DNA from: Candidatus Peregrinibacteria bacterium
GTDB lineage: Bacteria > Patescibacteriota > Gracilibacteria > UBA1369 > LOWO2-01-FULL-3
Reading direction: 5' to 3'
DNA length: 46,968 bases
Assembly: GCA_016186245.1 (NCBI GenBank)
Contig: JACPLZ010000011.1
Coordinates: forward strand, 1-46,968
Below the pieces are notes generated by a model. The model saw nothing but the letters and a program-made list of their open reading frames with translations. It was not told the DNA's origin and ran no database searches. Of the stretch, positions 5,526-38,885 are shown piece by piece. A program made the translations under genes and the position numbers. Every line of letters begins with the position of its first letter. The stretch's first letter is position 1.

Positions 5526-5572
5526 TATGAGTACTGCAATTATTGAAGTAAAGATTTTATAAACGGCGCCGC

Positions 5573-16694: not shown

Positions 16695-18221
16695 ATGGCA
16701 AATAAAGTTTTTTCCTGTGCTTTCACGGGACTGGATTGCCGCATCGTGGAAGTGGAAGCGGATATTTCGAGCGGAATGCCAAATTTCTCAATTGTTGGAC
16801 TGGGTGACACTTCGGTACAGGAATCCCGCGAACGTGTCCGCAGCAGCATCAAAAATAGCGGCGCAACCTTTCCGCCAACCCGGAAAACGGTAAATCTTGC
16901 TCCAGCGGAAATCCGCAAGCAGGGGAGTCATTTCGACCTTCCGATAGCTGCAAGCATTCTGCTCGCCAGCGGGCAAATCAAAGGCGGACCTCTTGAAAAT
17001 TCTCTTATCGTCGGTGAACTGTCTCTCGATGGAAACATTAAAGGCATTCACGGTATTTTGCCTATCACACAGCATGCAAAAGAACAGGGATTTTCCAGGA
17101 TTTTTCTGCCTGAAGTGAACGCCGGTGAAGCAGGTTTTATCGACAACATCGCCATTTACCCGCTTAATAATCTCCGGCAGTTTATTGATTATTGCAATTC
17201 TGGGATCAAAATTTGCGAATATGCGCGCGGAGAAAATGACATGCGGAATATTGGCGGCCAGGAACAATCAGACTACTCATTGTCGCAAATTATCGGATTG
17301 CACAGGGAAAAACGGGCGCTCGCCATTGCCGCTGCCGGCGGACATAATATCATTCTTGATGGGCCGCCGGGCACAGGCAAGACAATTTTAGCAAGGGCAT
17401 TCGCAGGTCTTTTGCCCCCGATGTCGCGCGATGAAATCCTCGAAACTACCAAAGTTTTTTCAATTGCGGGCATGATCGATCATAAAAATCCGCTTATAAC
17501 ACGCCGCCCTTTTCGGGAAGTGCATCATACGGCATCGGCTGTATCCATTATCGGGGGCGGAGATAAAAATCCCCGTCCGGGAGAGATCAGTCTGGCCCAT
17601 AACGGCGTTTTATTTTTTGACGAAATCCCGGAATTCCCGACAAAAATTTTGGAATGTCTGCGTCAGCCTCTTGAGGACAAATTTATCAACATCACCCGCG
17701 CAAATTTTTCAATTAAATTTCCAAGCAATTTTGTTTTTATAGCCACAATGAACCCATGTCATTGCGGCTATCGCAACGATCCTAAAATAAAATGCATTTG
17801 CAGCGATTATAATGTTTTGAATTATCGCAGGAAACTGTCAGGGCCGATCCTTGACCGGATAGATATTCTGCTCCAGGTACCCCTGGTTTCCATGAAGAAT
17901 ATTTTTGATGAAAACAGCATTGATGGGCAAAAAATGATTATCGGAAAAATCGCTATCGCCAGGCAAATTCAACTGGAAAGATTTAAGAACGACATCAGAA
18001 TCAGAAAAAATGCGGACATGCAGATAGAGCAGATTAAAAAATATTGCCAGCTTGGTCAGGAAAGCCAAAAAGCACTGGAGGAAGCACGCGAAAGGTTAAA
18101 TCTGTCGAATAGAGGATATATCAGAAGCATCAGGATTGCCCGCACCGTCGCAGACCTGGAATATTCGAGTAATATAAAAACCGAACACGTATTGGAGGCG
18201 CTGCAATTCCGTCATTCATGA
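16695..18221 (+). CDS. comM: YifB/ComM-family Mg-chelatase-like AAA+ ATPase
   Basis: Lon-like N-terminal domain (VEVDISSGMPNFSIVGL), Walker A (GPPGTGKT), Walker B (VLFFDEIPEF), and a C-terminal Mg-chelatase subunit ChlI-like region. Confidence 0.9.
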   Translation: MANKVFSCAFTGLDCRIVEVEADISSGMPNFSIVGLGDTSVQESRERVRSSIKNSGATFPPTRKTVNLAPAEIRKQGSHFDLPIAASILLASGQIKGGPLENSLIVGELSLDGNIKGIHGILPITQHAKEQGFSRIFLPEVNAGEAGFIDNIAIYPLNNLRQFIDYCNSGIKICEYARGENDMRNIGGQEQSDYSLSQIIGLHREKRALAIAAAGGHNIILDGPPGTGKTILARAFAGLLPPMSRDEILETTKVFSIAGMIDHKNPLITRRPFREVHHTASAVSIIGGGDKNPRPGEISLAHNGVLFFDEIPEFPTKILECLRQPLEDKFINITRANFSIKFPSNFVFIATMNPCHCGYRNDPKIKCICSDYNVLNYRRKLSGPILDRIDILLQVPLVSMKNIFDENSIDGQKMIIGKIAIARQIQLERFKNDIRIRKNADMQIEQIKKYCQLGQESQKALEEARERLNLSNRGYIRSIRIARTVADLEYSSNIKTEHVLEALQFRHS

Positions 18222-20562: not shown

Positions 20563-23319
20563 TTAAATCAGATTCTTTTCTATTTCCTCGCACTGTATCG
20601 GTGTCAGATCATCGCCGGTATCATCATAATGCATTAAATTTCCCGGCTGATCGGCACCCTGATCATGCGCATGCGCATGGGGCTGGTCTTTATTTACCCC
20701 TTTACTTAACTGATGTGCCAGCTCATGTGCCAGTGTCCTATTGTCATGATCGGTGCTTTCGTCAACAGTCACACCATCAGTGGGATCATTCCATGACGCG
20801 CCCATGGTGTCATCATCCAGTTTGGGCACGTAATAAACCGGAATGCAGTTGCCGGACGGCGGATGCCTGTTAACCATTTCATCGAGTTCCGAATTCAGAT
20901 CAACATCTCCATCTCCGTTTGTATCCACGTCATTAAAATCCTGCGCCGTAAGATGCTCTATCGCATGTATGGCAATATCCAAAAAGAAATTGCAATCGCA
21001 CTGCTGCGCGTTTTTGGAAAAAATCTGCATCGCCGTAACGACATCGGTGCTCACGGTAACATCTGTGGCATCGCTGCCTTCAAAAATAAACACATCTACG
21101 CAGACGGATTTCCACGGTTTTACCTTGTACCACCACTTCCAGAATTCCTCGAAAATATCCCACATTTCTTCATCCGATTTATTCTCGCCGTCTGTATTTT
21201 TTATAACCGCATCCTGCACGTAAATAACTCCATCTCCGATTGAAGCAGCATTAAACAGCAGATCTCCCGCACGAATGGTCTCCGGCACGGTTGAAGCGGT
21301 ATTTTTTATAATTCCCTGAATGGAAATCATGCCATTTGCAGAATTCACACCCTTTATAAGTGGCGTGCCAAAGGCATCTCCCGGTATGGGATCCTCAATA
21401 TCCACAAACTGCAGCAGTTTATTTGATGGCATAAGATTGAAAGAAAATTCTCCCAGCTTTCCTTTATTTTTTGGAAAATAAATATACATCGGAACGGAAA
21501 ATTGCCCGGATTCTTCTTCCACCGCCTTTGGGAAATTCAGTTGTATCGGCAAAAACGCAACCTGGACCGTTTCTCCCAGGCTTATTCCGGAAGAAGTTGT
21601 TATCGTTACGTCGGAAACTCCCCAATCGCTTGCCGTCAGCTCAATTGTAAAGATACCGTTTTCATTATGTGAAATTTCAACCGATCCCATCGTAGCAACT
21701 GCCGAAAGATTATTATTCACCGAAGAATACGGCAGAACATTCCCATATTTATCCACTCCGGCAACTTCGATGATTGCGCGGTCAGGTCTGTCATTTTCAT
21801 AATCATAATTTACATTTTTCACTTTTACATCAGCAAATCGCGCAGGCTCGACATACACCATCGCCGCATTTTTGACATTCGTTGTTTCATCCGTAACCGA
21901 TAAAGTGAAATACCCGGATTTATCCGAATCAAAAACGGTTGAAAAACCGCCGTCTGCATTTGCGGTAAGATTCACATATTTTACAAAATCCCGTCCCGTG
22001 GAAATTTTCACCTGCGGCAGGATTGTTGGCGAAACCGGATCCCCATATTCATTTACAAAATCAACATCTACATATGTGCTGCCTCCCGCTGTAAAATTTT
22101 CCAAACCGCTTATCTCAATGTGATCGATATTGCCGCCATTTCCGGAAAAAACAGTGTCATTTGGACACTCCTGGGAAATTATATTGTTTGAAAGAATGTT
22201 TTCATAGCAGACCGTACAGCCGTTATCCCGTCCGATGCAATATGGCTCATCGGTTGAAATTGGTGTCTCCGATCCAACGGTGATTTTTACGTGATCCACA
22301 TAGCAGAGTATTTCTTCGTAATCGGAAGTGTCGGAAATACCTTCCGGCAGGTACCAGCAGGCAACATCAAACTGCTCCCGCATTAAATCGTCAAAATAGA
22401 CCATATTGTTTTTTTGCTCTTCTTTATGGCAAAACATCAGGCCAAAGCCATCAGCGTCATATCCGGTAATATCAATACCGCTCAAAACCTCTTCCACCCT
22501 TTCCCAGAAATCACCTTCATCGGAAAAATAGCAGAAGTTTTGGTCAAAATAAGTTTCATCAATCGGATTAAAATCACTTGTCTCGTAAAATGCTCCCGTA
22601 TTTCCAAACGGCCCGCCAGGCCCAAACAATCCTCCCGGCGCCAACGCCCCGTCATGGGGAATTTCATAATATTCAAACAATTCATCAGTCATATCCGCAT
22701 CAAAAGATTCAATATTTAAAACATCAATTTGTTTATTTCGATAAATCATTTCCGCGATATCCCCGCGATCCATTATCGCTCCGGCATCATTTTCGGCCAT
22801 AATTCCGCGCTTGGAGGCTAACTCAAAATATGGCTGATACCACTGTTCATTTTCTTCTTTTTCTCTCAAACTCCAGCCCTCCAATTCTCCAAGAATTTTC
22901 AGTGATTCCACTTGGTTTATAATTTGGTCCGGTTTAAATGTGCCATCAGGATAGCCGTTTACAATGCCTTCGGATTTCGCCTGGCATACGTAAGTTGAAT
23001 ACCACGCATCCGGCGGCACGTCCGGAAAACATTTTTCATAATTTTGCCCGGTTGCAACTCCGGTTCCTTCAAAAAGAAGTTTAAGAAATTCCGCACGGTT
23101 TATATTGTTTGAAGGACGATATTCGCGCAGACCATCGTTACTTTGATAGCCTTCTACAACGCCGGTGTTATAGAGAAAATAAATCGCGTCATAATTTTGA
23201 TTTTCCAGTTCAACATCGTTAAACATTGAATTTCTAACCTGCCCATAACCGCCTGCTGTCGGCACAGACATCGTCAAAAAGGCTAACGCTACAATAAAAA
23301 ACAGAATATATTTTTTCAT
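20563..23319 (-). CDS. Large secreted protein: N-terminal SLH domains, central beta-rich region, C-terminal HExxH metallopeptidase-like motif
   Basis: Signal peptide MKKYILFFIVALAFLTMSVPTAGG (ATG at 23319; the ORF track starts at 23349). SLH-like units FNDVELENQNYDAIYFLYNTGVVEGY and FPDVPPDAWYSTYVCQAKSEGIVNGYPDGTFKP. Ca-binding-like DTNGDGDVDLNSELD. C-terminal TLAHELAHQL...NLMHY. Confidence 0.75.
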   Translation of the reverse strand: MKKYILFFIVALAFLTMSVPTAGGYGQVRNSMFNDVELENQNYDAIYFLYNTGVVEGYQSNDGLREYRPSNNINRAEFLKLLFEGTGVATGQNYEKCFPDVPPDAWYSTYVCQAKSEGIVNGYPDGTFKPDQIINQVESLKILGELEGWSLREKEENEQWYQPYFELASKRGIMAENDAGAIMDRGDIAEMIYRNKQIDVLNIESFDADMTDELFEYYEIPHDGALAPGGLFGPGGPFGNTGAFYETSDFNPIDETYFDQNFCYFSDEGDFWERVEEVLSGIDITGYDADGFGLMFCHKEEQKNNMVYFDDLMREQFDVACWYLPEGISDTSDYEEILCYVDHVKITVGSETPISTDEPYCIGRDNGCTVCYENILSNNIISQECPNDTVFSGNGGNIDHIEISGLENFTAGGSTYVDVDFVNEYGDPVSPTILPQVKISTGRDFVKYVNLTANADGGFSTVFDSDKSGYFTLSVTDETTNVKNAAMVYVEPARFADVKVKNVNYDYENDRPDRAIIEVAGVDKYGNVLPYSSVNNNLSAVATMGSVEISHNENGIFTIELTASDWGVSDVTITTSSGISLGETVQVAFLPIQLNFPKAVEEESGQFSVPMYIYFPKNKGKLGEFSFNLMPSNKLLQFVDIEDPIPGDAFGTPLIKGVNSANGMISIQGIIKNTASTVPETIRAGDLLFNAASIGDGVIYVQDAVIKNTDGENKSDEEMWDIFEEFWKWWYKVKPWKSVCVDVFIFEGSDATDVTVSTDVVTAMQIFSKNAQQCDCNFFLDIAIHAIEHLTAQDFNDVDTNGDGDVDLNSELDEMVNRHPPSGNCIPVYYVPKLDDDTMGASWNDPTDGVTVDESTDHDNRTLAHELAHQLSKGVNKDQPHAHAHDQGADQPGNLMHYDDTGDDLTPIQCEEIEKNLI

Positions 23320-23355
23320 TTGAATGATGTTAGATTGTCCGGAGCTCATTCTGAC

Positions 23356-26343: not shown

Positions 26344-27849
26344 CTATTTTCTCTTTTTTCCGATCAGTCTGCCTAAACCAAGGGATACGAGTATCAATGC
26401 CGCGACTCCAGGACCGGTTTCAGCCAGGACTACTTTGGCAATTGAACCTTCGCTTTCATTTCCAGCTTCATCTTTCTGCGTCAATTTAAACCAGTATTCT
26501 CCGGGCGCAAATTCACCGGCTTCATATTTATCGGCTGCCGGTTCAAGACCAGTTTGCTTGGAGTACGCATCACCTTTATTTCTGCTTAAATAGAGTATCT
26601 GTTCTACGGCGTCGCCTGCATTCTCTGCCGGCACTTTCCATTTAAGGGTTATCAGATATTTTTCCGCCTGCAGCAATTTTTCAGCGATAAAATTTGCGGC
26701 ATCTTTTGGCGGAATCAAATCATCGATACTGCCGGTTTCACCTTTTCCCTCGAAATTCATTGTCAGAATTCCCGCTTCAGGCAATTCATTTTCCGCTTCA
26801 TCGGTAATGCCAGCAACGGTGAGAATATAAGTTTTTTTACCTTGAGGAGATGTGGTCAAAATCGCGGTGGAATCTTCAGTCCCTTCGCTATTTGGGCTGA
26901 GCTCCACGCCCAAAACAGTGACACTTTCGGCAACTTCGTCATCCGATGTGATTACAAAATTTTCTGCCGGATCAATTCCCAAAACGATCCCTTCATTAAA
27001 ATCGACACGGATATGGGTTGCATCAATTGCTTCAACTGCAACCAGGGCTGGCGCATCCTTGTCTTCCGGCGCTTTCGGCTCGCCGCTGCCAACGAATAAA
27101 GCAGTGTCCGATGTGCCGCTGGAAATGGGATTTTCATATCTGTCTTTCACTCCCGTGCCAACTTCCAGTTTATAATTTACAAGTTCTTCCTGGGGTTCTG
27201 TTGTAAGAATAACGGTGCTCGCGCCCGCATCCGATGCGTCCATAATTGCCGCCAATACGTTCAGAGATTCAAAAGTATCATCATTTTCGATGGTAAATTC
27301 ATCCTGGGCATTTTCCGCAGGCAACACAACAGGCTCAGAAAAAACAACTTTTACTTCTTCTTGATTAAGCGCTTCAGCATCAGTAACTTTCGGCGCTTCC
27401 TCATCGGAGATATCGCCGGCATCAGCGGTTGGAATTACCTCCGCTTCCGGAGCCAATAGGCCGCTTTCATTTCCCGCTTCATCATAGGCGACAATGGAAA
27501 AATAATAGGTTGTATCATTGTCCAGATTTTCTACCGTGAATTCATAAAGACCATCGTCATTTTTTTCCGGAATTTTCGCGTCTGCAAAATTCGGATTTTC
27601 ACCATCAAGACTGTAAAATTCCCCCTGCTCTTTGACCTGTGTCAAACCGTAATGAATAAAATACCCATCAACCGCGACATTGTCTTCAACCCCGCTCCAT
27701 TCCACTTTCGCGGCGCTATCTAAAGGGGTAACCGTTAATTTCTCGATATTACCGGGATTTTCCGTGTCTTCATCGGCCTGCGCAATTACAGCAAGCGGAG
27801 TCGACAATAGCATCATTACGGCGGCAAGCATAAAAATTATCTTTTTCAT
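26344..27849 (-). CDS. Surface protein with fibronectin-type-III-like domains and a C-terminal LAETG sortase sorting signal
   Basis: Signal peptide MKKIIFMLAAVMMLLSTPLAVIAQA. Fn3-like motifs (VEWSGVEDNVAVDGYFIHYG, YYFSIVAYDEAGNES, YWFKLTQKDEAGNES). The C-terminus is LAETG followed by the hydrophobic stretch PGVAALILVSLGLGRLIG and the basic tail KKRK. Confidence 0.8.
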   Translation of the reverse strand: MKKIIFMLAAVMMLLSTPLAVIAQADEDTENPGNIEKLTVTPLDSAAKVEWSGVEDNVAVDGYFIHYGLTQVKEQGEFYSLDGENPNFADAKIPEKNDDGLYEFTVENLDNDTTYYFSIVAYDEAGNESGLLAPEAEVIPTADAGDISDEEAPKVTDAEALNQEEVKVVFSEPVVLPAENAQDEFTIENDDTFESLNVLAAIMDASDAGASTVILTTEPQEELVNYKLEVGTGVKDRYENPISSGTSDTALFVGSGEPKAPEDKDAPALVAVEAIDATHIRVDFNEGIVLGIDPAENFVITSDDEVAESVTVLGVELSPNSEGTEDSTAILTTSPQGKKTYILTVAGITDEAENELPEAGILTMNFEGKGETGSIDDLIPPKDAANFIAEKLLQAEKYLITLKWKVPAENAGDAVEQILYLSRNKGDAYSKQTGLEPAADKYEAGEFAPGEYWFKLTQKDEAGNESEGSIAKVVLAETGPGVAALILVSLGLGRLIGKKRK

Positions 27850-27878
27850 ATTTGTTTTATTTTTATTTTTATCACCGA

Positions 27879-27887
27879 ATTATAGCA
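27879..27887 (-). promoter_or_regulatory. Candidate extended -10 (TGCTATAAT) for the LAETG surface-protein gene
   Basis: The minus strand reads TGCTATAAT followed by a 29-nt A/T-rich leader to the ATG at 27849. The repeat array begins about 30 bp further upstream. Confidence 0.45.
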
Positions 27888-27915
27888 AAAAATAGCGGCA
27901 AAAGCAATGCTGGAA

Positions 27916-28248
27916 ATCCTGAAACAAGTTCAGGATGACATTTTTTGTGTCATGCCGGTTCAGGATGACATTTTTTGTGTCATGCCGGTTCAGGATGACA
28001 TTTTTTGTGTCATGCCGAACTTGTTTCGGCATCTCTTGAGGTTGATCGCTACGATAGATCCTGAAACAAGTTCAGGATGACACGATTAGAGTTCAGAATG
28101 ACACGATTAGAGTTCAGAATGACACGATTAGAGTTCAGGATGACACGATTAAAGTTCAGGATGACATTTTTTGTGTCATGCCGAACTTGTTTCGGCATCT
28201 CTTGAGGTTGATTGCTCCGATAGATCCTGAAACAAGTTCAGGATGACA
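27916..28248. repeat. Composite hairpin and tandem-repeat array built on the core GGATGACA
   Basis: Hairpin H1 (ATCCTGAA-ACAAG-TTCAGGAT) at 27916, 28058 and 28224. Three 30-bp units at 27927-28016. Hairpin H3 (ATGCCGAA-CTTGT-TTCGGCAT) at 28012 and 28178. Four 21-bp units at 28083-28166. A 94-bp segment is duplicated (27989-28082 and 28155-28248, 2 mismatches). Confidence 0.95.
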
Positions 28249-29491
28249 TTGATGGCGGTTCTATTTTCGTAATTTTCACCTTATCCACAACCTTTTTCTT
28301 CATTTTAACGACAAGTACTTTTGCCCTTTCCAATTCAATCATCTCTCCCTCCCTCGGAAATCTATGCAGATGCTCAAGCAAAAACGTATTAATAGTATCA
28401 TGCTCATTTGCCGCAAATTTCATTTTGAAAAAATCATTCACGTCTTCGATCAGCGTGGCCCCCGTGGCAATGATATTGTTACTATCGATAATTTCGATAG
28501 GGTGCTCCGAAGGATCAAATTCATCCACTATCTCTCCCACAATTTCTTCCAGCAGATCCTCCATGGTAACAAGGCCGGCCGTGCCGCCGTGTTCATCGAT
28601 CACTATGGCCATGTGCAGGTGTTTTCTTTGAAACTCTCTGAACAATTTGTCTATTTTTTTTGACATCGGCGCTTCCAGCGGCATGGTCAGTTTCAGCTCC
28701 TCCAGTTTCCTGTTATGGGGATGTTCATCATAAAATTTCAGCAGTTCTTTGATGTTGATTACGCCGATGATATTGTCGATAGTCTTGCGGTAAACTGGAA
28801 TCCGCGAATGAGAATGTCTGATGGCGAAATCCACGGCATCATCCAGCGTTGTAGCGCTTTCCAGAGCGCCAATTCCAACTCGCGGCGTCATGATCTCGCC
28901 AACCTCGATATCGTTAAATTCCAGCACGTTTTCAATGAATTCCTGTTCCTGCTTATTGATTGTTCCTTCCCTTGTTCCTATTTTCAGCATGGCAACAAGC
29001 TCGCCTTCCGTAATCGTACTGCTCTTTTTTGTCCCAAAAATTCTGTTTGCGACAATCACAACTTCTTTAAAAAACCAGACTATCGGATACAGAATGGTCT
29101 GCAGAAAATATATCGGGCGCGCCACCAAAAGAGATATTGATGCCGAATGTTGATGGGCAAAAGATTTCGGCAAAATTTCGCCAAAAACCAGAATCATGAA
29201 AGTCATGATACCTGTGGCGATACCTACTCCGGAATCGCCGAACAGTCTGGTAAAAACCACGGCTGCGTAGGCGCTCGCGCTGATATTTACAACATTATTT
29301 CCAACAAGGATTGTGATAAGAAGTTTATGCGGGTCCTCTTTCAGCTTTTTTAAAATACCGCTGTTGGCAGCCATTTTTGCCACCAATTCACTTACTTTTG
29401 ACGGTCTTAACGAAATCAATGCTGTTTCGCTCGCGGAAAAAAATGCGGACAGAATAACCAGTGCGGCCAGAACCAAAAATTGCGAAGACAT
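28238..29491 (-). CDS. CNNM/CorC/HlyC-family transporter (DUF21, CBS pair, CorC_HlyC domains)
   Basis: SASETALISL (DUF21), a CBS pair region (IMTPRVGIGAL..., IPVYRKTIDNIIGVINIKELL), and a C-terminal transporter-associated domain. The ATG at 29491 (MSSQFLVLAAL) is preferred over the ORF-track start at 29581, which would run through the divergent argS start. Confidence 0.9.
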   Translation of the reverse strand: MSSQFLVLAALVILSAFFSASETALISLRPSKVSELVAKMAANSGILKKLKEDPHKLLITILVGNNVVNISASAYAAVVFTRLFGDSGVGIATGIMTFMILVFGEILPKSFAHQHSASISLLVARPIYFLQTILYPIVWFFKEVVIVANRIFGTKKSSTITEGELVAMLKIGTREGTINKQEQEFIENVLEFNDIEVGEIMTPRVGIGALESATTLDDAVDFAIRHSHSRIPVYRKTIDNIIGVINIKELLKFYDEHPHNRKLEELKLTMPLEAPMSKKIDKLFREFQRKHLHMAIVIDEHGGTAGLVTMEDLLEEIVGEIVDEFDPSEHPIEIIDSNNIIATGATLIEDVNDFFKMKFAANEHDTINTFLLEHLHRFPREGEMIELERAKVLVVKMKKKVVDKVKITKIEPPSMSS

Positions 29492-29555
29492 ATTTTGGTG
29501 AAAAAAATGACTGAAACCAAAATATATGTTTTCTGGATTTTTCTCAAGAATTAAG

Positions 29556-29567
29556 TAAAATAACGCT
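29556..29567 (+). promoter_or_regulatory. Candidate -10 box TAAAAT placed 6 nt upstream of the argS-fusion ATG (leaderless geometry)
   Basis: TAAAAT-AACGCT-ATG. The hexamer is at 29556-29561 and the ATG at 29568. Confidence 0.45.
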
Positions 29568-32171
29568 ATGCAGCTGATCATAGACAGGAAAATTTTTGAT
29601 GAATATCACGACCTCAAAATAGGAGCGATAATAATCCGCGGATTTAACAACAGCAAAAGAAGCTCCGCAATCGAGAGTCTGCTTCGCGGCGTTTGCGCCC
29701 AGAGGCGGCGTGAATTCCAGGATAAAGACATCCACGAAAATCCGATGATAAAAGTATGGGATCAGACTTATGGACGGTTTGGAGTCAATCCAAAAAAATT
29801 TCCGCCGTCAATTTCAGCTCTTTTAAAAAGAATCCGGACCGGAAAATATCTGTCCCACATCAACCCTTTGGTAGACCTTTATAATTATTTTTCGCTGAAA
29901 TATCTGCTGCCAATCGGAGGTGAAGACATTGATTGGCTTTGCGGAGATTTGCGTCTGGCTTTCACAAAAGGGGGAGAGGCATTCCGTCCGATTGGTTCAA
30001 TAGAAGTGGAAACAGCCAAAGAAGGCGAAATAGCCTACATGGATAAGGGCGGCATAACCAGCCAATACTGGAATTATCACGAATGTGAAAGAACGAAATT
30101 CACGGAACGGACGACAAATGCCGTCATCTTGATTGAGGATTTGAGCAAAATGCACATGGATGAATTCGGCCGCATTCTGGATGACTTGCAGAATAATATT
30201 TTGAAATACATTGGAGGACAAATTGAATCTTATCTTTTGAATGAAGAAAATCCTGCCATTGAGCTCGGCGCTCAAGGCAGGACTCATGCCGATGATGCAA
30301 AAATCCCACAGCAGGAAAGAGCCCACTTTTTGGAGCAGGAGTTGCGGGCGGAACGGGCAGTCTCTCCGGCTTCCGCTTCTTCCAATTCAAAAAAAAAACC
30401 TTGGAACAGCTCAGGCTCTTCTAAGCAGCTTATTGTAGAGGATAAAACATCTATTAGGAGTAAAATCGGCAGTCTTTTTGTCAAAGCTTTGGGGCAAATC
30501 GCACCGGGATTAAAACCGGAAATCCGTCTGGAAAATCCAGCTTCCGTCGAACACGGAGATTATTCCTCGAACATCGCCATGCAGATCGCAAAATTTTTAA
30601 AAAAATCACCACGCGACATCGCGCAGGAAATTATCAGGAATATTACCAAAAACACTTTGATTGAAAAAGTTACAGTAGAAGGGCCCGGATTCATCAATAT
30701 TTTTATTTCTGAAAAAATTCTGAATAAAGAAATAAATTCCATCATAAAAAAAGATGGCAGTTATGGCTCATCGAAAATCGGCCACGATAAAACCGTCATT
30801 ATTGAATACAGCCAGCCGAATATCGCCAAACCTCTTGGCGTCCACCATCTGCTTTCCACGATTATAGGGCAGAGCATCTATAATCTTTTAAAGCTCCTTG
30901 GCTTTAAAGCGGTCAGCATTAACCATATCGGCGATTGGGGCACGCAGTTTGGCAAACTTATTCATGCGTATAAACAATGGGGGGATAAAAAAACAGTCGA
31001 AAAAAATCCGATCAGCGAGCTCCTTAAATTGTATGTAAGATTTCACAACGAAGCCGAAAAAGACCAATCTCTTGAGGACAAAGGACGCGAGGAATTTAAA
31101 AAATTTGAGGAGGGCGACAGCGGGAGCAGGAAACTATGGCAATGGTTTGTGGACGAAAGCATGAAGGAAGTGGAAAAAACATACGGCATGCTTGGCGGAA
31201 TTCATTTTGATTATGTCCAGGGGGAAAGTTTTTACGAAGATAAAATGGGGGCGATTTTCGAGGAAGGCAAGAAAAGAGGAATATTTGTGAAAGGGGAGGA
31301 AGGCGCTTATGTAAGCGTTTTTGACGATCCTGATATCCCAACTGTGCCGGTGCGGAAAAAGGATGGCGCCACTTTATATATAACCCGTGATTTTGCAGCT
31401 TTAAAATATCGTATTGATACATGGCATCCTGAAAAAATTCTTTACGTTGTGGACGTTGCGCAAATTCTGCACTTTAAACAGATATTCGCCACCGCCAGAA
31501 AATTTCCATGGTACGGCGGCGAGGGCGAACACGTAGTGTTTGGACGCATGCAGTTTAAGGATGGAAAAATGAGCACCCGGAAAGGCAATATTATTGCATT
31601 GGATGAAGTGCTTTCGGAAGCCATAAATCGTGCATTGAAAATCGTGTGGGGGAAAAATCCCGACCTTAAAAATAAGGACGAAATTGCGCGCCTCATAGGC
31701 ATCGGCGCAGTAAAATACAATATCCTCTCCCAAAACCGTATTTCCGATATTACGTTTGATTGGGACAAAATGCTTTCACTGGAAGGAAATAGCGCTCCGT
31801 ATTTACAGTACACCTATGCGCGCGCACGGAGCATTTTAAGGAAATCGGAGGAGAAAAATCTGCGGGAATCAGTCGCGGATGATGATTCTGCTCAGGGGTT
31901 CCCTCAGACCAAAATCAGAAATCTAACAGTGCATTTAAGCAAGTTTTCCGAATATATCGTTTTAGCCGCATCGGAATATAAGCCGAATATTATCGCAAAT
32001 TATCTTTATGATTTGGCGCAGAAATTCAATTCTTTTTACAATTCCGTGCCGGTGCTGAGAGCTGCCTCCGCAGCAGATAGAAAACAGCGTCTCAAAATAG
32101 TCAAAGCATCTTCTATAGTCATGAAAAACGGCCTCGGATTATTGGGAATCGAGACTGTTGAAGAAATGTAA
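29568..32171 (+). CDS. argS: Arginyl-tRNA synthetase with an N-terminal B3/4 (PheRS-beta editing-type) domain fusion (867 aa)
   Basis: Residues ~1-225 (MQLIIDRKIFDEYHDLKIGAIIIRGFNN...INPLVDLYNYFSLKYLLPIGGEDID) match the stand-alone B3/4-domain protein pattern. A Ser/Lys-rich linker follows (SPASASSNSKKKPWNSSGSS). The ArgS part covers residues ~300-867: Arg_tRNA_synt_N region (VEHGDYSSNIAMQIA), HIGH-region (PNIAKPLGVHHL), GKMSTRKG, and the DALR anticodon-binding end. Confidence 0.9.
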   Translation: MQLIIDRKIFDEYHDLKIGAIIIRGFNNSKRSSAIESLLRGVCAQRRREFQDKDIHENPMIKVWDQTYGRFGVNPKKFPPSISALLKRIRTGKYLSHINPLVDLYNYFSLKYLLPIGGEDIDWLCGDLRLAFTKGGEAFRPIGSIEVETAKEGEIAYMDKGGITSQYWNYHECERTKFTERTTNAVILIEDLSKMHMDEFGRILDDLQNNILKYIGGQIESYLLNEENPAIELGAQGRTHADDAKIPQQERAHFLEQELRAERAVSPASASSNSKKKPWNSSGSSKQLIVEDKTSIRSKIGSLFVKALGQIAPGLKPEIRLENPASVEHGDYSSNIAMQIAKFLKKSPRDIAQEIIRNITKNTLIEKVTVEGPGFINIFISEKILNKEINSIIKKDGSYGSSKIGHDKTVIIEYSQPNIAKPLGVHHLLSTIIGQSIYNLLKLLGFKAVSINHIGDWGTQFGKLIHAYKQWGDKKTVEKNPISELLKLYVRFHNEAEKDQSLEDKGREEFKKFEEGDSGSRKLWQWFVDESMKEVEKTYGMLGGIHFDYVQGESFYEDKMGAIFEEGKKRGIFVKGEEGAYVSVFDDPDIPTVPVRKKDGATLYITRDFAALKYRIDTWHPEKILYVVDVAQILHFKQIFATARKFPWYGGEGEHVVFGRMQFKDGKMSTRKGNIIALDEVLSEAINRALKIVWGKNPDLKNKDEIARLIGIGAVKYNILSQNRISDITFDWDKMLSLEGNSAPYLQYTYARARSILRKSEEKNLRESVADDDSAQGFPQTKIRNLTVHLSKFSEYIVLAASEYKPNIIANYLYDLAQKFNSFYNSVPVLRAASAADRKQRLKIVKASSIVMKNGLGLLGIETVEEM

Positions 32172-32376: not shown

Positions 32377-33711
32377 TTAAAATCCGTCCGGATCCCCGAT
32401 TTCAGCCGGATCGGCAAAAATACGGTAAAATACGGTTACCGCCATCGCTCTTGAGAACGGGACCTTGGCGTCAAAAGCCCCGTCTTTATCATTCATGAAT
32501 TTTAAATAACTCATTACCCTTATATACGGCAGCGCCCAATCGGAATATTCATCGCTTGGTATAAAATTAAATAATGCCTCGTCTTCAGCGTCAGATATGA
32601 CCACGCTGTCTTTCGTAAAACCCACCACATTGGCAATCATTTTAGCGGCCTGCTCGCGGGTTACCGGATCGTCGCAGCCAAATTTGCCGCCGCCGACACC
32701 GCTCCAGTAACCGGCATCAACGCCCGTATAGACGTAAGGCGCCGCCCAATGATCGGCAGGCACATCGGTAAAACCGCTTACATGGCTTCCATCAACGTCA
32801 ACTTCATGAGCTTCCAAAAGCATTTTGGAAAACTCGCAGCGTGTAGCGCCATCCGTTGGCCGGAAATTGTCATCATACTTGACCCAGCCTTTGGCGGCGG
32901 CATACCGTACAGGATCGTAAAACCATTCTCCTGCGGGAACATCAAGAAAGCTGTTATTATATTCAAAAAAGCCATCACTGTATGAATCAGATGATTTTGC
33001 CAGATCAAAATAACCAGGATCCATATTCACATAGCCGGTGGTATCGGTAAGCATCATTCCAAAAAGATCATCGGTTACTTTCCCATCCTCAGGCATATAC
33101 AAAATCGCATGTTTGGTTTTATCGTAATACGCCTGGACTATCAGCTCATTTGTAACCGAATGATAGACCTTACCTGTGGCAGGATCGACAAGCGGATAAA
33201 TATATCCATATTCCAGCGGAAGCTTATTGTCATAAACCGTTATTTCCCCAACATCTTTTTGCTCGGCGCATACTTCGGTGGTTGTAGTTAAACAGTGATA
33301 AATCGAACGATCGGTAAAATTGATCCTTGTGCCGTAGGCCTTTAAACTGCTCGTTGAATTACTGTTTTTTTCCAGACAGTAGACATCGCCGCTCGGCCAT
33401 CCTTCAACGCCTATGGCTCCTTCAGGAATAGTCAAACCGGGTACCCCATAATCTCCCGCAGGTACGGGAGTCCCGCCGGACGATGATACATTGCCAGTTT
33501 TCGTTCCATAATCACCATATGTGCCGCTATAGTCTGAACCATTATCGGTATAAAATGAGGGAGTCCAGGTGGAACTTTCATAATCTACATCCCAGCTTGG
33601 ATCATATGATCCTGAGTAATAATCATAACCGTCAAGAAACGCAAAAGCTGCCTGGGAAAAAATAAAAATCCCAAACAAGCAAAGAATAGAGACCTTCAAA
33701 AATTTTTTCAT
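32377..33711 (-). CDS. Secreted protein with C-terminal SLH domains
   Basis: Signal peptide MKKFLKVSILCLFGIFIFSQAAFA. SLH-like units FLDVPAGEWFYDPVRYAAAKGWV...FRPTDGATRCEFSKML and FTDVPADHWAAPYVYTGVDAGYWSG...VTREQAAKMI. Confidence 0.8.
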   Translation of the reverse strand: MKKFLKVSILCLFGIFIFSQAAFAFLDGYDYYSGSYDPSWDVDYESSTWTPSFYTDNGSDYSGTYGDYGTKTGNVSSSGGTPVPAGDYGVPGLTIPEGAIGVEGWPSGDVYCLEKNSNSTSSLKAYGTRINFTDRSIYHCLTTTTEVCAEQKDVGEITVYDNKLPLEYGYIYPLVDPATGKVYHSVTNELIVQAYYDKTKHAILYMPEDGKVTDDLFGMMLTDTTGYVNMDPGYFDLAKSSDSYSDGFFEYNNSFLDVPAGEWFYDPVRYAAAKGWVKYDDNFRPTDGATRCEFSKMLLEAHEVDVDGSHVSGFTDVPADHWAAPYVYTGVDAGYWSGVGGGKFGCDDPVTREQAAKMIANVVGFTKDSVVISDAEDEALFNFIPSDEYSDWALPYIRVMSYLKFMNDKDGAFDAKVPFSRAMAVTVFYRIFADPAEIGDPDGF

Positions 33712-33977: not shown

Positions 33978-36899
33978 ATGTTTTCAAACAGAATTCTCCA
34001 AAGATCGCTTTTGGCGATCGTTTTGCTTTCAACAATAATTGTTGCCGGCTGTGCAGATTCAAAAGATTTAAAAACAGACACAACAGGCGCAACAGACACA
34101 ACAGGCGCAACTCCAAGTGCCACTCCAACTCCAACTACCGATCCCGCCGTTACGGACACCAAAGCAAGCGGCCTTGCGGATCAGCTGAAGTGGGATATTG
34201 AAAATCATAAGAATCGCAGTGATGAACTCAAGAGAATGTCGAAAGAAGCCGATACCAGCAAAATTCCGGCGCTTCTGGATCAATGGAAAGTCAAACTGGC
34301 TGAACTCCAAAAATTTGTTGACCAGAATGACAACGACGGTTATTGGGACCTGAGAAATAATGATGTGCAGGATTTACAAACGCAAATAGATGAGGCTTTC
34401 AACACCGCTTATTCTTCTTCCAATTTTGCCAACAATAAAAATCAGGCGCTCAAGGATAAACCAAAACAGCTCAAGGATATTCAAAAGCAGTTGAAAGATC
34501 TTAAAAGAAATACCCGTAATTTTGAAACGCCGGTTGATACCACCTTGCTTCAGGGATATATAACCCAGCTTGAGCAATATATTCCGGTGATGCAGGCGAT
34601 TGCCAATAAGCCGACAGCTGGGTTGAGTGGTGATGATTTAAACGATCTTTCCAATGATATCTCCGATGTTATCCGCGACTTTGATGATGTGTCCCAGAAT
34701 TTTTATGACACGATAAATGATGTGAATGAAGGGGTGTGGGCGCAACAGCGTGTTGAGGATGCGAAAAAGGGGCTGCGCGATAAGGAACGCGGCATCAAGG
34801 ATATCAATCGGCAGTTAAAGCAGTTTACCAAAGATTTGGGCGAAACCGACTCTCGTGTTTCTGAACTCAAAGCAAAAGTTGGTGAAATGGAGACAACTAT
34901 CAATGCCATAAAAACTGCCGTTGACAATAACGACAGCGAAACTCTTCAGGATATAGATCAGGACTTTTGGGATTTGAATACTGAAGCATGGGATCTGACA
35001 AATGAATTGAACGAGGTACAGAACAGCGAACGCCAGAATAAAGATGTCGCCAAAAATTTAAAGGATAAACAAAAATGGCATAAAGACAAAGAACGCGAAT
35101 GTGAAAAAGTAAAATGCAATGACAGTGAAGCGGGAAAAGTTATCCAGCAGATGAGGGATTTGCTTCAGCAGATGGAAGAAGCGGTCAATGAAGGACGTTC
35201 ACAGGATTACTGGGATTTTGAATTTGAATACAACAACCTTGATCCGGAATTTTGGGATGTCATCAAAGGCAAACAGTCCGAGAAAGACATCCGCCGATGG
35301 CTTAAGGACGTGATCCGCGAGTGGAAGGATAAGGGGCGCTGGGTTGCCGATCTAGAAAGAGAGGCGGGAAGGGGAAGCAATGTGGTTGATGAAGAAGGCG
35401 TTGCCAGGCTGCAGGAAATTCACGATGGCGCGATTGCACAGTTAAAGGAAGCCGAAAATCTTTATAACCAGGGCAGTTATGATGATGCCCGCGATATCCT
35501 CGACGGATTAAATGATGTCCGTATGGAATTTGATGAGATCACAGGAAATTTCAACAAGGGCAGGGAGACGGAATTCAGCAAATTTGAATTGGAAAAGCTC
35601 GAGCGCGAAATCGAGGCTGGACTGGATGCTATCGATCAAAAACTTGAGAATGGTGAAATAACCCAGGAGAAAGCCGATACATGTACGGCTTTCGCTGAAA
35701 AAGCCACCGGCTATATTGGGCAGCTTAGGGAAATTTATGAAGAGGGACAAATGGGCGAAGCCAAGGAAATTATGGTGCGCATGGAAAATCTTGGCAATGA
35801 AGCCGACAGGGATTGCGGCGATATTTTTATGGAAACAGGCGACAATTACAACACTTTTAATGAATACTGGGTCCCGGAGAATCTACAGGGCACAGCCGAA
35901 GCAATTTTTGCCAAACTGAGCGGTGATCTTGAGGCCAAACTGATGGATAGGGTGCTTGAAAAATTGGCAGGTGTTACATCTCAATTTAATGATATTATCG
36001 AGCAATTCGGCAAAAGGTTTGAAGATATCATTGCCGGAAAACTGGAAACGATTTCTTTTATTTCCGAAGAATATCAGAATGAATTATTCAGCCGCACCGC
36101 ACAGATTTTTGAAAAAATTGAGCAGGTGGAGGGTGCTGCAAGCCGGCTTGCGCAGGATCAGCAGGACAGATTTAACAGCATCCGCGATCAGATTCTAAAC
36201 TATAATTTTTATGGCGATGCTGCCGGAAATGTAGAGGATTATTTGCAGGAATTTGAAGATTCCAGTTTGACCGATGAGGATATTGCGGCTTTGGAATCAA
36301 GAATTGATCAGGTGAAAAAGGATGCGGTGGTGGAGAAATTTAATCTTGGAATTATTCCTTTCCGCGATACGGATGATAATGAATGGTACACGGCTTATGT
36401 TGCCCAGGTTGCCAAAAATGGGATTGTAAACGGCAAAAGCGACGCACAGGGAAATCCAACCGGTTTCTTTGATCCCGGCGCCAATGTGACTATCGCTGAA
36501 ATGCTGAAAATGTCCCTTGAGGCTGCCGGAGTCGGCCAGGCGCCAGGAGTTCCTGCGCTTAGGCAGGCTGGAAATCATTGGGCGGTCGGCTATGTGAAAC
36601 GCGCCGAGGAGCTTGGTCTGGACATCGTAAAAGGACTTGATAATCTTGATCGTTATGCAACCCGCGCTGAAATCGTAAAGACGGCTTTGCAGGCAAAAGG
36701 AATAGTGCCAAATACTGCAAGCGGATCACCTTATGCCGATGTACCTGACAGCCATCCAGCATCAGCTTATATAGTCGAAGCAACATCACTTGGAATTGTG
36801 AAAGGTGATAGTAACGGCCAGACATTCCGTCCGGATGCCACTGTAAACCGTGCTGAAACGGCAAAGATTGTAAATAATCTGGCGGAGATAACCAGATAA
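33978..36899 (+). CDS. Lipoprotein-type signal, ~700-aa coiled-coil region and C-terminal SLH domains (973 aa)
   Basis: Lipobox LSTIIVAGC at the end of the signal peptide. Tandem TDTTGA repeat (18 bp x2 at ~34077-34112). Long charged heptad-like region with recurring [YF]WD motifs. C-terminal SLH-like units FRDTDDNEWYTAYVAQVAKNGIVNG and YADVPDSHPASAYIVEATSLGIVKGDSNGQTFRPDATVNRAETAKIV. Confidence 0.8.
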   Translation: MFSNRILQRSLLAIVLLSTIIVAGCADSKDLKTDTTGATDTTGATPSATPTPTTDPAVTDTKASGLADQLKWDIENHKNRSDELKRMSKEADTSKIPALLDQWKVKLAELQKFVDQNDNDGYWDLRNNDVQDLQTQIDEAFNTAYSSSNFANNKNQALKDKPKQLKDIQKQLKDLKRNTRNFETPVDTTLLQGYITQLEQYIPVMQAIANKPTAGLSGDDLNDLSNDISDVIRDFDDVSQNFYDTINDVNEGVWAQQRVEDAKKGLRDKERGIKDINRQLKQFTKDLGETDSRVSELKAKVGEMETTINAIKTAVDNNDSETLQDIDQDFWDLNTEAWDLTNELNEVQNSERQNKDVAKNLKDKQKWHKDKERECEKVKCNDSEAGKVIQQMRDLLQQMEEAVNEGRSQDYWDFEFEYNNLDPEFWDVIKGKQSEKDIRRWLKDVIREWKDKGRWVADLEREAGRGSNVVDEEGVARLQEIHDGAIAQLKEAENLYNQGSYDDARDILDGLNDVRMEFDEITGNFNKGRETEFSKFELEKLEREIEAGLDAIDQKLENGEITQEKADTCTAFAEKATGYIGQLREIYEEGQMGEAKEIMVRMENLGNEADRDCGDIFMETGDNYNTFNEYWVPENLQGTAEAIFAKLSGDLEAKLMDRVLEKLAGVTSQFNDIIEQFGKRFEDIIAGKLETISFISEEYQNELFSRTAQIFEKIEQVEGAASRLAQDQQDRFNSIRDQILNYNFYGDAAGNVEDYLQEFEDSSLTDEDIAALESRIDQVKKDAVVEKFNLGIIPFRDTDDNEWYTAYVAQVAKNGIVNGKSDAQGNPTGFFDPGANVTIAEMLKMSLEAAGVGQAPGVPALRQAGNHWAVGYVKRAEELGLDIVKGLDNLDRYATRAEIVKTALQAKGIVPNTASGSPYADVPDSHPASAYIVEATSLGIVKGDSNGQTFRPDATVNRAETAKIVNNLAEITR

Positions 36900-36953: not shown

Positions 36954-38885
36954 CTATGCCGAAACAACTGCAAAACCGAATTGACCATTACCGTTTAACT
37001 GTAGGCCATTTTCCCTCAGAGTAGTTCTGATTTCCGGGATTCTTGTCAGTATCAGTTCCTTTCTATATCCAGTTTCTTTTGCGAGATCGTCAAGGTTTAT
37101 GTTTGGGTTTTCGGCAATTGCTTTGGCTATCTTATAGTCAAAATTTACCTGGAAGGAACATGATCCGAGCCTTTCAATTCTTACTAACTGGGCTTTCGCC
37201 ATTTCTGTCTTTCTCTGAGCAGTACCTTTTCTGACAGTGCCTGGTTCGATTTGTCCCAGACACAGTTTTAATTGTAAAAGCCTTAAAATATTTTCTTGAG
37301 GAGCTGGTACCCTTGTAAGTCTGCTGGTTAACATCATCTGCATGTAACTCTTTTCTATTTTAAGAAAAATTATATCGCCAATTTCAGCTTCTGTGACTTT
37401 AAACTTATCCTGGATATATCTTATATTGGCGGCGGTTGTTGTTATTGCAACAATCTTGCCATTCAGCTTGGACAGTTTTGTTCTTGTTAAGATAATTTCT
37501 TCTGTTATTTGAATGTCCAAAGGAGGTGCTTTTTCATCATCATCGTCGTTATCATCATCTTTGCCGTCATCGTCTTCATCTTCATCACTTTCAGCACTTT
37601 CAGCACTTTCAGCACCTTCATCCTCATCTATTTCTACTTCTTCTTCACTCTCATCGTCATCATTATCATCTTCATCCATTTCTTCTTCACCCTCATCATC
37701 GTCATCATCCACCCCCACACCCACCTTCTCTCCTGTTGATGATGGCAATTCTACGGCATCACGCAGGCACTGTTCCAGGTTCTGAGGCAATCCATCCAGG
37801 CCGCTGAAATTTTCAAATGCAGCCGCCTCTTTATCCAATTCTTCAATTTCCGACTGCAATTTACCGATTTTTATTTTCAATTCTTCTTCTCTTTTGCGGA
37901 ATTCCAGCACCTCTAAAAATTCCGGCAGGGCATCTTTCTTGTGCTGCAAAATACTATTTTTATATTTCGACCTAATACTTTTTGGCGGACGACTTCCCTT
38001 CGTATCATCTTCGGACATGCCGGCGATTCCAGTACAGATTTGTTTATAATTTTCCTCTATTTCATCGAGTCTTGTTTTCCATGTTTTGAATTCAGGATTT
38101 GTCTCCAACTGTTTTACTTTAGCATCTATTTCGGAAATTTTGCTCAGCATTTCTCCAATAGCCTGAATAGCATAACCGCGTTTGCATTTTAGATTGTGAA
38201 CATGTCTGGCAACTGCATTTTTGAGATGCCTTACTGCGGTAAAAACATCTCTGCGGCTGATGCCGGAGTTAAGCAAAACATATGGTGTCAGATTGTCCCT
38301 ATGTTCTTTTCCCCTGGCAACTTCCCAGAATCTTCGCGAGTATTTTACCTCAACTTTTTGACCGCAATGAATTTCTATTTCCCGACTTAGAAACCGCAGG
38401 CAACAATTGTAGGCAAAACTTCTTTGCTCTGGATCATCGGAAAACTGTTCGAAAATTTTTCTTATTTTACTGCCGATTGCGACAAACCCGGCCTTGGCCG
38501 CTTTGTCGAATGTGAAACTGTCTTTGTTTTGCAGCACAAAATTTAGAAAGGCTATATACTCTTCTCTTCTGCCTAATCTCAACATCAATTCTATGTAAAA
38601 TTTCATGTATTTTACTATTGATGAGATATTTGGATCATCTAGACGAGAAGAATCTATTTCCGGACATTCGGCTATTTTTGACCTGATTGGCAAACATATC
38701 GCGGAATCAATATCCACTCTTTTTGAATCTACATTGATATCGATGTCCACTTTTGACAGCGCATCTTTAATTTCCCGTATAATGCCGGTGAAAATGCCAT
38801 CGTCAATCCATGGCGGACGTATGAGAGAATTTGTTATTCCAAGCAGTAAATCATTGGTGATTCTGGCTTGAATTGGTCTGATCAT
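36954..38885 (-). CDS. Orphan 643-aa protein with a coiled coil, a 59-residue polyacidic tract and a possible C-terminal HTH
   Basis: No signal peptide or TM segment and no family motif recognised. The acidic tract DDDDDEGEEEMDEDD...DDDNDDDDE is at nt 37533-37709 (43 of 59 residues are D or E, including AES x3). The C-terminus (NLDDLAKETGYRKELILTRIPEI) looks HTH-like. Its own TATAAT is at 38911-38916 (minus strand). Confidence 0.75.
   Translation of the reverse strand: MIRPIQARITNDLLLGITNSLIRPPWIDDGIFTGIIREIKDALSKVDIDINVDSKRVDIDSAICLPIRSKIAECPEIDSSRLDDPNISSIVKYMKFYIELMLRLGRREEYIAFLNFVLQNKDSFTFDKAAKAGFVAIGSKIRKIFEQFSDDPEQRSFAYNCCLRFLSREIEIHCGQKVEVKYSRRFWEVARGKEHRDNLTPYVLLNSGISRRDVFTAVRHLKNAVARHVHNLKCKRGYAIQAIGEMLSKISEIDAKVKQLETNPEFKTWKTRLDEIEENYKQICTGIAGMSEDDTKGSRPPKSIRSKYKNSILQHKKDALPEFLEVLEFRKREEELKIKIGKLQSEIEELDKEAAAFENFSGLDGLPQNLEQCLRDAVELPSSTGEKVGVGVDDDDDEGEEEMDEDDNDDDESEEEVEIDEDEGAESAESAESDEDEDDDGKDDDNDDDDEKAPPLDIQITEEIILTRTKLSKLNGKIVAITTTAANIRYIQDKFKVTEAEIGDIIFLKIEKSYMQMMLTSRLTRVPAPQENILRLLQLKLCLGQIEPGTVRKGTAQRKTEMAKAQLVRIERLGSCSFQVNFDYKIAKAIAENPNINLDDLAKETGYRKELILTRIPEIRTTLRENGLQLNGNGQFGFAVVSA

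Follow-up and report, generated by a model that had tools for sequence, protein, structure and literature searches.

The segment at 27916–28248 of contig JACPLZ010000011.1 (Candidatus Peregrinibacteria bacterium), analyzed here over positions 1–46,968 (the window), lies between two minus-strand genes and is filled by hairpins and tandem repeats, which raises the question of what kind of element such a mosaic is and which protein might recognize it. Our analysis indicates that the array is very probably a mosaic cluster of CGTC/TGTC-tagged repetitive extragenic palindromic (REP) hairpins of the Ssn-related motif class, that is, a new example of a known system, and it is comparable to the Neisseria intergenic mosaic elements (NIME) or the bacterial interspersed mosaic elements (BIME) of E. 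coli. An original prediction, made from the sequence alone, had suggested a REP/BIME-like nature, and in this it was right; the hairpins match the descriptors of CGTC-tagged REPs (PMC3733652). Ssn proteins are small single-domain GIY-YIG nucleases (cd10448) flanked by hairpins termed NTS or SRM (Chenal et al. 2025, Nat Commun 16:2388; PMC11893778).

Dissection of the array recovered the modules of that prediction (three H1, two H3, three 30-bp units, the 21-bp units and the stem version at 109) where it had placed them, and found every module to be a whole copy or a fragment of one common oriented unit, which reads TGTC, AT-xyz-GAA, CTTGT, TTC-z'y'x'-AT and a C-tail in this order. H1 (ATCCTGAAACAAGTTCAGGAT; ATCCTGAA-ACAAG-TTCAGGAT; at 27916, 28058 and 28224) and H3 (ATGCCGAACTTGTTTCGGCAT; ATGCCGAA-CTTGT-TTCGGCAT; at 28012 and 28178), previously taken as separate modules, are the same oriented element on opposite strands, and a third stem version (ATCCCGAA/TTCGGGAT) is found at 109. 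A degenerate hairpin pattern gave six matches in the window versus 0.00 expected, and six complete units lie at 105 (+), 27940 (−), 28008 (+), 28082 (−), 28174 (+) and 28248 (−). In all six, the TGTC tag stands directly 5′ of an 8-bp stem that closes a 5-nt CTTGT loop; five of them carry a cytosine immediately 3′ of the palindrome, and the 3′ tails are CTC or CTA. The complete hairpin at 105–133 (+; TGTC, ATCCCGAA, CTTGT, TTCGGGAT, C and TCT) folds as single-stranded DNA (ssDNA) at −7.3 kcal/mol (z −4.0), and H3 copy 1 at 28008–28035 (+; TGTC, ATGCCGAA, CTTGT, TTCGGCAT, C and TC) at −7.9 kcal/mol (z −5.7), the range for single hairpins being −6.1 to −7.9 kcal/mol with z −3.8 to −5.7. Together, the two loci hold six full copies and 16 half-sites, the latter being 16 further TGTCAT tags in truncated units. 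The core GGATGACA, which had been estimated to recur about 20 times, was counted 16 times, all within the two loci and against 1.3 expected by chance. Since the units abut or share repeated linkers and no unique spacers occur, a CRISPR array was rejected, as it had been originally.

At the main locus, complete units form two H3/H1 head-to-head heterodimers, each with a 21-nt spacer. The first, at 28008–28082, consists of H3 copy 1 (+), the spacer and H1 copy 2 (28054–28082, −), with inverted repeats I1/I2 of 28 nt that are 86% complementary, and such an H3–H1 dimer can alternatively fold as a single long hairpin at −21.1 kcal/mol (z −6.3). The second lies in a duplicated block (direct repeat D3; 27988–28082 versus 28154–28248), of which the second copy at 28154–28248 contains a half-site, H3 copy 2 (28174–28201, +), the spacer and H1 copy 3 (28220–28248, −). 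The duplication, originally given as 94 bp with two mismatches, measures 95 nt (98% identity).

The remaining sequence is made of tandem arrays, which were defined by Tandem Repeats Finder (TRF) with units of 30 bp (×3.0, 27928–28017, 100%), 21 bp (×4.7, 28069–28166, 96%) and 13 bp (×8.6, 1–112, 98%). The window, and with it the contig, starts inside the 13-bp array, whose eight 5′ half-sites at 1–104 (+; TGTCATCC-AACCG), each comprising the tag, the first four stem nucleotides and a 5-nt upstream flank, lead into the hairpin at 109. Four 21-bp 5′ half-sites at 28083–28166 (−; TGTCATYCTGAACT-YTAATCG) comprise the tag, the 5′ arm, two loop nucleotides and a 7-nt upstream flank with no 3′ arm, and H1 copy 2 is the 3′-terminal complete unit of this array. 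The common form is [upstream flank + tag + partial 5′ arm]n followed by one complete hairpin in tag orientation, and the unit breaks off after stem position 4 in the 13-bp array and after loop position 2 in the 21-bp array. Neither unit forms a hairpin, and as ssDNA both fold worse than shuffled sequence (z +1.9 for 21 bp and +3.1 for 13 bp). The 30-bp array (27928–28017), in which the tags alternate between strands, is built differently: each of its three units fuses TGTCATGCCG to GTTCAGGATGACA and adds a TTTTTTG spacer, and corresponds to the base of the H3–H1 head-to-head dimer with its centre deleted. Its ATGACA-N7-TGTCAT mini-hairpins fold at z −4.8. Array copy numbers are given as assembled: two independent short-read assemblies match the window exactly, and both of their contigs break inside the arrays, at 105 and ~27956.

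To place the hairpin in other genomes, the pattern TGTCAT-NNN-GAACTTGTTTC-NNN-AT (19 specified bases) was scanned over 596 Gb with one genome per species. It returned at least 144 copies in at least 120 genome stretches, compared with our own chance estimate of ~4–8, and the matches listed come from more than 15 phyla. The element is thus widespread, and the modules do not show the confinement to the two loci that the original prediction had named as fatal to it. Judged by record titles, the hosts include many Patescibacteria lineages, Bacteroidota, Ignavibacteriota, Spirochaetota, Melainabacteria, Nitrospirota, Elusimicrobiota, Pseudomonadota, Bacillota, Dependentiae and one Nanoarchaeota bin. 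The free stem triplets are fully complementary in 129 of the 144 matches listed, while shuffles averaged 27 and never exceeded 42; at one stem position these matches carry C-G (53), G-C (50), T-A (30) and A-T (2) pairs, and at another T-A (96) and C-G (44). The stem differences are compensatory changes under selection for the hairpin. Selection on a folded structure was thus correctly deduced in the original prediction, because the free stem triplets covary across genomes, and what needs revision is the nature of the fold, which is that of ssDNA and not of RNA according to PMC11893778. The base after the palindrome, which the pattern leaves free, is C in 142 of the 144 matches listed, and the tails among copies are CTC, CTA or CTT. 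Copies are mostly intergenic, with 18% of those listed lying inside long open frames versus 86% of all bases. Elsewhere they typically form inverted pairs 10–40 nt apart, and the two partners often differ in stem and loop.

The exact hairpin pattern was also present on 31 stretches of IMG/VR viral contigs (L203–L233 in our numbering of loci); these contigs, which may be true phages or prophage-flanking host DNA, suggest a possible route for spread across phyla. The single archaeal bin (L009, a Nanoarchaeota metagenome-assembled genome) contains a typical hairpin heterodimer, which could be a binning error or a real archaeal occurrence. Other types of tagged hairpin, for example gtcattgcgag...cgaagcaatc, cattcccgcgaaagcgggaatc and GTCCCGGC-gaag-GCCGGGAC, were seen either within the same genomes or next to close relatives of Ssn (flanks of L018, L044 and L072; L146, L155, L159, L161 and L187), which suggests several hairpin-nuclease specificities, sometimes within one genome.

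Next to these copies, a gene family recurs. Open reading frames (ORFs) within 600 bp of hairpins in 120 listed loci were clustered, and the largest family shared across the listed loci was a GIY-YIG protein of 90–105 aa (PF01541, ~1e-15 to 1e-16), whose nearest PDB entry is the UPF0213 protein 1zg2 (E 1e-5) and for which NCBIfam holds no specific model, giving only weak group-I-intron-endonuclease matches. The gene is enclosed by two hairpins in inverted orientation in L088, L099, L100 and L120, as a hairpin-gene-hairpin unit of ~400 bp, and the short dimers look like ORF-less versions of this unit because of that position; the stem pair of the H3–H1 dimer also flanks the ssn gene in L120. Tandem occurrence of hairpin-ssn-hairpin units was noted as well (L099, 7296–8000; L088, 2532–3161), with two ssn copies side by side in L099 (Mesonia) and additional hairpin dimers flanking the unit at other loci on either side, which would fit a local amplification of the entire unit.

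The association also holds in the reverse direction. An alignment of the GIY-YIG proteins yielded 506 confirmed metagenomic relatives, and among the best 80 of them (43–79% identical) tagged hairpins were found on both sides of the gene in 39, on one side in 22 and on neither in 19, so that 61 of the 80 carry them. The same protein family is flanked as well by cgtcATTCCCGCgcagGCGGGAATccag, which is the Neisseria NTS consensus, by GTCCCGGC-gaag-GCCGGGAC and by ATCCCGGGC-ttg-ACCCGGGAT. The family assignment to Ssn was made through the relatives flanked by canonical NTS, and these share ~50% identity with relatives flanked by the hairpin type of the window, here called GAAC-TTG-TTTC after its centre. 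Hairpin type was shared with the nearest protein neighbour in 46 of 60 cases, compared with ~28 expected. A covariance model, R1, built from 97 distinct ssn-flanking hairpins only, in whose alignment both partners vary at three of the eight stem pairs, recovered all six hairpins of the window at 38–50 bits (E 7e-9 to 2e-12) and gave no other match in the 47 kb. The individual scores are 48.1 bits (E 8e-12) for the hairpin at 105–133, 38.2 bits for H1 copy 1 (27912–27940, −), 48.3 bits for each H3 copy (the match of copy 2 spanning 28169–28204, +), 49.7 bits for H1 copy 2 and 50.1 bits for H1 copy 3 (match at 28218–28253). They depend on orientation, with 38–50 bits in the tag orientation versus 9–12 bits in the opposite one. 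The original idea that the array is a site for a protein encoded elsewhere gained support, with a GIY-YIG protein of the Ssn family as the partner in place of the RAYT-like transposase that had been offered as an example.

Several observations weigh against this assignment. The published SRM pattern, HGTCWYN(0-2)YYVSBRHN(0-5)WNVSBRGN(0-2)RNCYNB, matches none of the six window copies and none of the 144 listed copies elsewhere, while an NTS control does match it; the pattern is an operational query drawn from 29 genomes of four phyla, not a biological definition. A search of the six-frame translation of the 47-kb window with a local hidden Markov model found no ssn/GIY-YIG gene (best E 0.43). 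The 80 relatives examined were seeded from proteins beside the GAAC-TTG-TTTC hairpin type, and the share of this subtype among the hairpin-bearing ones (37/61) is biased upward for that reason. Ssn action on hairpins of this type is deduced by analogy with Ssn assayed on other hairpins. H1 copy 1, TGTC ATCCTGAA CTTGT TTCAGGAT on the minus strand, is followed by T in place of the conserved 3′ C and has the lowest R1 score; this copy at 27940 (−) may be a decayed site.

By analogy with the characterized nucleases, we propose that in single-stranded DNA the hairpin serves a small single-domain GIY-YIG nuclease (Ssn) as its oriented recognition site. The hairpins would extrude in ssDNA, e.g. during replication, recombination or DNA uptake, and the cognate Ssn, presumably encoded elsewhere in this genome, would bind the hairpin and nick the ssDNA a few nucleotides 5′ of the TGTC tag. 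In this organism, an Ssn is inferred to act on the copies described here, and the cluster may influence recombination or variation around the adjacent LAETG surface-protein gene. The H3-spacer-H1 dimers would be ORF-less derivatives of the ~400-bp hairpin-ssn-hairpin unit, and the cluster may have arisen by spread of such dimers and subsequent local duplication, the latter step being suggested because the 95-bp block is present twice. Tandem arrays would then have formed by reiteration of the tag-side half with its upstream flank (13 and 21 bp) or of a centre-deleted dimer (30 bp).

Arrays of the same design as the 13- and 21-bp ones recur in L015, L128, L137, L156 (two arrays) and L187, where they adjoin ssn genes or hairpins and have periods of 19–23 and 43 bp. 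Counted without requiring a tag, nine arrays have sequence in common with a genuine tagged hairpin; all nine repeat the tag-side half and none the 3′ half, although they are not fully independent because they come from six genomes. The likeness to iterons that had been drawn from the 21-bp spacing is therefore superficial, and iterons were rejected on anatomy and context: the 21-bp units are truncated 5′ half-sites, and the periods of such arrays beside ssn genes elsewhere vary. We take the 13-, 21- and 30-bp arrays to have arisen secondarily, through slippage or nick repair associated with hairpins, and a functional role for half-site arrays is speculative. That the tag-side half-site arrays are a footprint of Ssn action in vivo, as opposed to random slippage, seems unlikely. 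Under such a scenario, a nick just 5′ of the tag and template switching at the hairpin apex would reiterate the tag-side half, and the stacked first halves could pair, in trans or in different registers, with the one 3′ arm. They would thereby offer a set of alternative cleavage sites, as a natural counterpart of the split-NTS "DNA-guided" cleavage in vitro, where an artificial concatemer of first halves was cut after annealing of a second-half oligonucleotide (PMC11893778). If it were true, the array would be a local hotspot of recombination or length variation beside a surface-protein gene. Natural half-site arrays are not mentioned in the text of PMC3733652 or PMC11893778.

The upstream flanking gene (28238–29581, −) encodes a 447-aa CNNM/CBS/CorC_HlyC transporter-type protein (PF01595 at 8e-53, PF00571 and PF03471), and its stop at 28238, which the original prediction had used as the boundary of the array, was confirmed and falls within the last hairpin, H1 copy 3. 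The tag and 5′ arm of this hairpin (28238–28250) supply the last four codons, ATG TCA TCC TGA (M S S stop; ...EPPSMSS*), and thus the C-terminus and stop codon of CorC are set by the repeat; the CorC_HlyC Pfam domain ends at residue 440 of 447. Among public assemblies, no record of this exact CorC protein was found. The downstream flanking gene (26344–27849, −), identified by Pfam and its C-terminus, encodes a 501-aa secreted Ig-like/fn3 protein ending in a LAETG sorting signal, that is, LAETG followed by a hydrophobic stretch and a basic tail. The array is upstream of this gene, 67 bp separating its start codon from the array.

This position between two genes raises an RNA-level primary function, namely that the hairpins serve as terminators or 3′ mRNA stabilizers between the CorC and surface-protein genes. 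The array directly follows the CorC stop codon and would be co-transcribed, its stem-loops are stable on the mRNA-sense strand, and REPs elsewhere stabilize mRNA (background in PMC3733652). We nevertheless consider it very unlikely: within 27700–28400 no terminator-like site, that is, no GC-rich hairpin with a T-run, was found on the transcribed minus strand, so that an intrinsic terminator was rejected together with the terminator role suggested originally. In addition, Rfam gave only chance-level miRNA and snoRNA matches at gathering and permissive thresholds, the 13- and 21-bp arrays lack any structure, the determinants of an ssDNA nuclease account for the invariant unpaired tag and 3′ C, and SsnA does not bind RNA (PMC11893778). 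Alternatively, the array could be a copy-number-variable (slippage) switch for the LAETG gene. Near-perfect 30-bp (100%) and 21-bp (96%) units just upstream of a surface-protein gene would suit such a switch, as would the Neisseria NTS clusters that adjoin surface or antigenic genes (PMC11893778) and the breaks of both independent assemblies inside the arrays; those breaks are, however, expected for any multi-copy repeat, and comparable half-site arrays elsewhere have ssn genes rather than surface-protein genes as neighbours. Variants in length were not observed, and no sigma-70-like promoter or promoter-like element was detected in 27700–28400, where the original prediction had put the promoter of the LAETG gene beside the array. 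A slippage switch is accordingly very improbable as an explanation of the array.

A classical REP/REPIN mobilized by a Y1 transposase encoded elsewhere (RAYT/TnpA-REP, IS200/IS605-type) we hold to be extremely unlikely. Inverted dimers able to fold into a long hairpin, BIME-like clustering and a location outside genes are what it would produce; against this, the tag is TGTC/CGTC and not GTAG, the top neighbour family is GIY-YIG, and a search for a co-distributed Y1/RAYT gene, as had been recommended, found no recurrent Y1 transposase family among the ORFs within 600 bp of hairpins in the 120 listed loci. No RAYT association was seen near the hairpins of these loci, nor were any tyrosine-transposase genes found to be flanked by CGTC repeats in PMC3733652. 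Finally, collapse or expansion of repeats during assembly might be suspected from the start of the window within the 13-bp array and from the short-read assemblies breaking in both arrays. Such an artefact is scarcely credible. Two other runs reproduce exactly the edges of the arrays where they adjoin unique sequence, unrelated assemblies and genomes show the same architecture, and units differ from one another by internal point changes (Y and R positions, 2 mismatches in 95 bp) of the sort usual in real repeats; it is only the copy numbers that assembly may have distorted.

The rest of the window is ordinary chromosomal DNA with dnaB, guaA, aminoacyl-tRNA synthetase and trp genes. The gene for the DnaB replicative helicase (12303–14942, −) contains an intein with a LAGLIDADG homing-endonuclease domain (Pfam Intein_splicing and LAGLIDADG_3). 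The arginyl-tRNA synthetase ORF (29568–32171, +), whose start overlaps that of the divergent CorC gene by 14 bp, has an N-terminal extension of ~300 aa with a B3/4 domain (PF03483), which could reflect either a genuine fusion or the reading of two genes as a single ORF. A 735-aa ORF (40822–43029, −) combines GATase (TrpG), anthranilate phosphoribosyltransferase (TrpD) and indole-3-glycerol-phosphate synthase (TrpC) domains and adjoins trpB-like and trpA genes. Four large S-layer-homology (SLH) proteins are encoded at 3387–5657, 20563–23349, 32377–33711 and 33978–36899, one with FG-GAP repeats, and the region is rich in cell-envelope functions because they share the window with the LAETG sortase-type substrate. 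Coding tandem repeats occur at 34073–34136 and 37534–37709. A ComM/Mg-chelatase-like AAA+ protein is encoded at 16695–18221 (+). The ComM family has been linked to natural transformation in other bacteria, and this gene may be relevant because Ssn modulates transformation in Neisseria.

Through the Ssn-related reading, an apparently exotic hairpin and tandem-repeat mosaic becomes identifiable as a recognition-hairpin cluster of the recently characterized Ssn ssDNA nucleases. What it adds is new but minor, namely a hairpin subtype that escapes the published SRM pattern and a directional architecture of 5′ half-site arrays. Among Ssn-associated hairpins, the GAAC-TTG-TTTC subtype appears to form a major class, present in many phyla and missed by the published SRM census. 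Censuses of Ssn hairpins are thus likely incomplete, because the SRM pattern misses a subtype common to many phyla, including the candidate phyla radiation (CPR)/Patescibacteria. The calibrated covariance model and the many ssn-hairpin pairs, whose stems differ, could be of help in selecting enzymes for new ssDNA specificities. The stacking of tag-side half-sites is a directional regularity that may report how the repeats are processed in cells. The region upstream of the LAETG gene is a candidate site of altered recombination and parallels the Neisseria NTS clusters beside surface-antigen genes.

Compared with known systems, the window hairpins are closest in form to the CGTC-tagged REP super-family (Di Nocera et al. 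2013, BMC Genomics 14:522; PMC3733652). Its members, which include Neisseria dRS3 and Rickettsia RPE-4 and RPE-6, have a CGTC and often a TGTC tag, stems of 8–9 bp starting with AT, loops of 4–5 nt and a 3-nt unpaired tail, and predominantly form head-to-head dimers that are often heterodimers; no dedicated transposase was found for them (PMC3733652). The window copies share the tag, the AT-started 8-bp stem, the 5-nt loop, the short unpaired tail and the head-to-head heterodimers. The super-family is further described as multi-copy and mostly extragenic, with occasional overlap of coding ends, and as occurring in Bacteroidetes, Chlorobi, Spirochaetes and Proteobacteria; the window holds copies at two loci, and those in other genomes are mostly intergenic. 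The window copies differ in the tail, which is CTC, CTA or CTT here versus a CCA consensus, and in the dense cluster formed here, clusters being called rare in PMC3733652. No sequence match of the subtype to the CGTC-REP catalogue (four families) was found in the text or supplements of PMC3733652, and neither the hairpin sequence nor peptides of its spurious translations gave a result when used in literature searches. The GTAG-type REP/REPIN/BIME elements with their RAYT (TnpA-REP) are likewise short tagged extragenic hairpins recognized as ssDNA, with inverted doublets, mosaic clusters and a single-copy nuclease-type gene beside many non-autonomous copies; they are set apart by the tag (GTAG versus TGTC/CGTC) and by the enzyme (HUH Y1 transposase versus GIY-YIG).

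The functional comparison is with Ssn and its hairpins. Ssn binds them only as ssDNA and cuts a few nucleotides upstream of the tag, the C that follows the palindrome being the nucleotide that matters most for binding; Ssn affects recombination of transforming DNA, NTS clusters in Neisseria adjoin genes for membrane or surface/antigenic proteins, and the NTS-ssnA-NTS unit has been likened to a domesticated insertion sequence (PMC11893778). The window hairpins have the SRM upstream motif (HGTCWY next to a hairpin-forming palindrome), and share with the Ssn/SRM system the oriented HGTCAY tag directly 5′ of an AT-initiated palindrome, the short loop, the C right after the palindrome, inverted hairpin pairs flanking a single-domain GIY-YIG gene of ~95 aa in other genomes, many ORF-less copies, and clusters beside surface-protein genes. 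Unlike NTS, they have the stem core xyzGAA/TTCz'y'x' and the loop CTTGT, versus TCCCGCG/CGCGGGA; unlike the published system, which is mainly from Pseudomonadota, their hosts include Patescibacteria, Melainabacteria, Spirochaetota and Bacteroidota; and the natural tag-side half-site arrays are undescribed in PMC11893778. Because it possesses the structural determinants and falls outside the SRM pattern, the element is best filed as a member of the CGTC-tagged REPs and as an Ssn-associated subtype beyond the published pattern.

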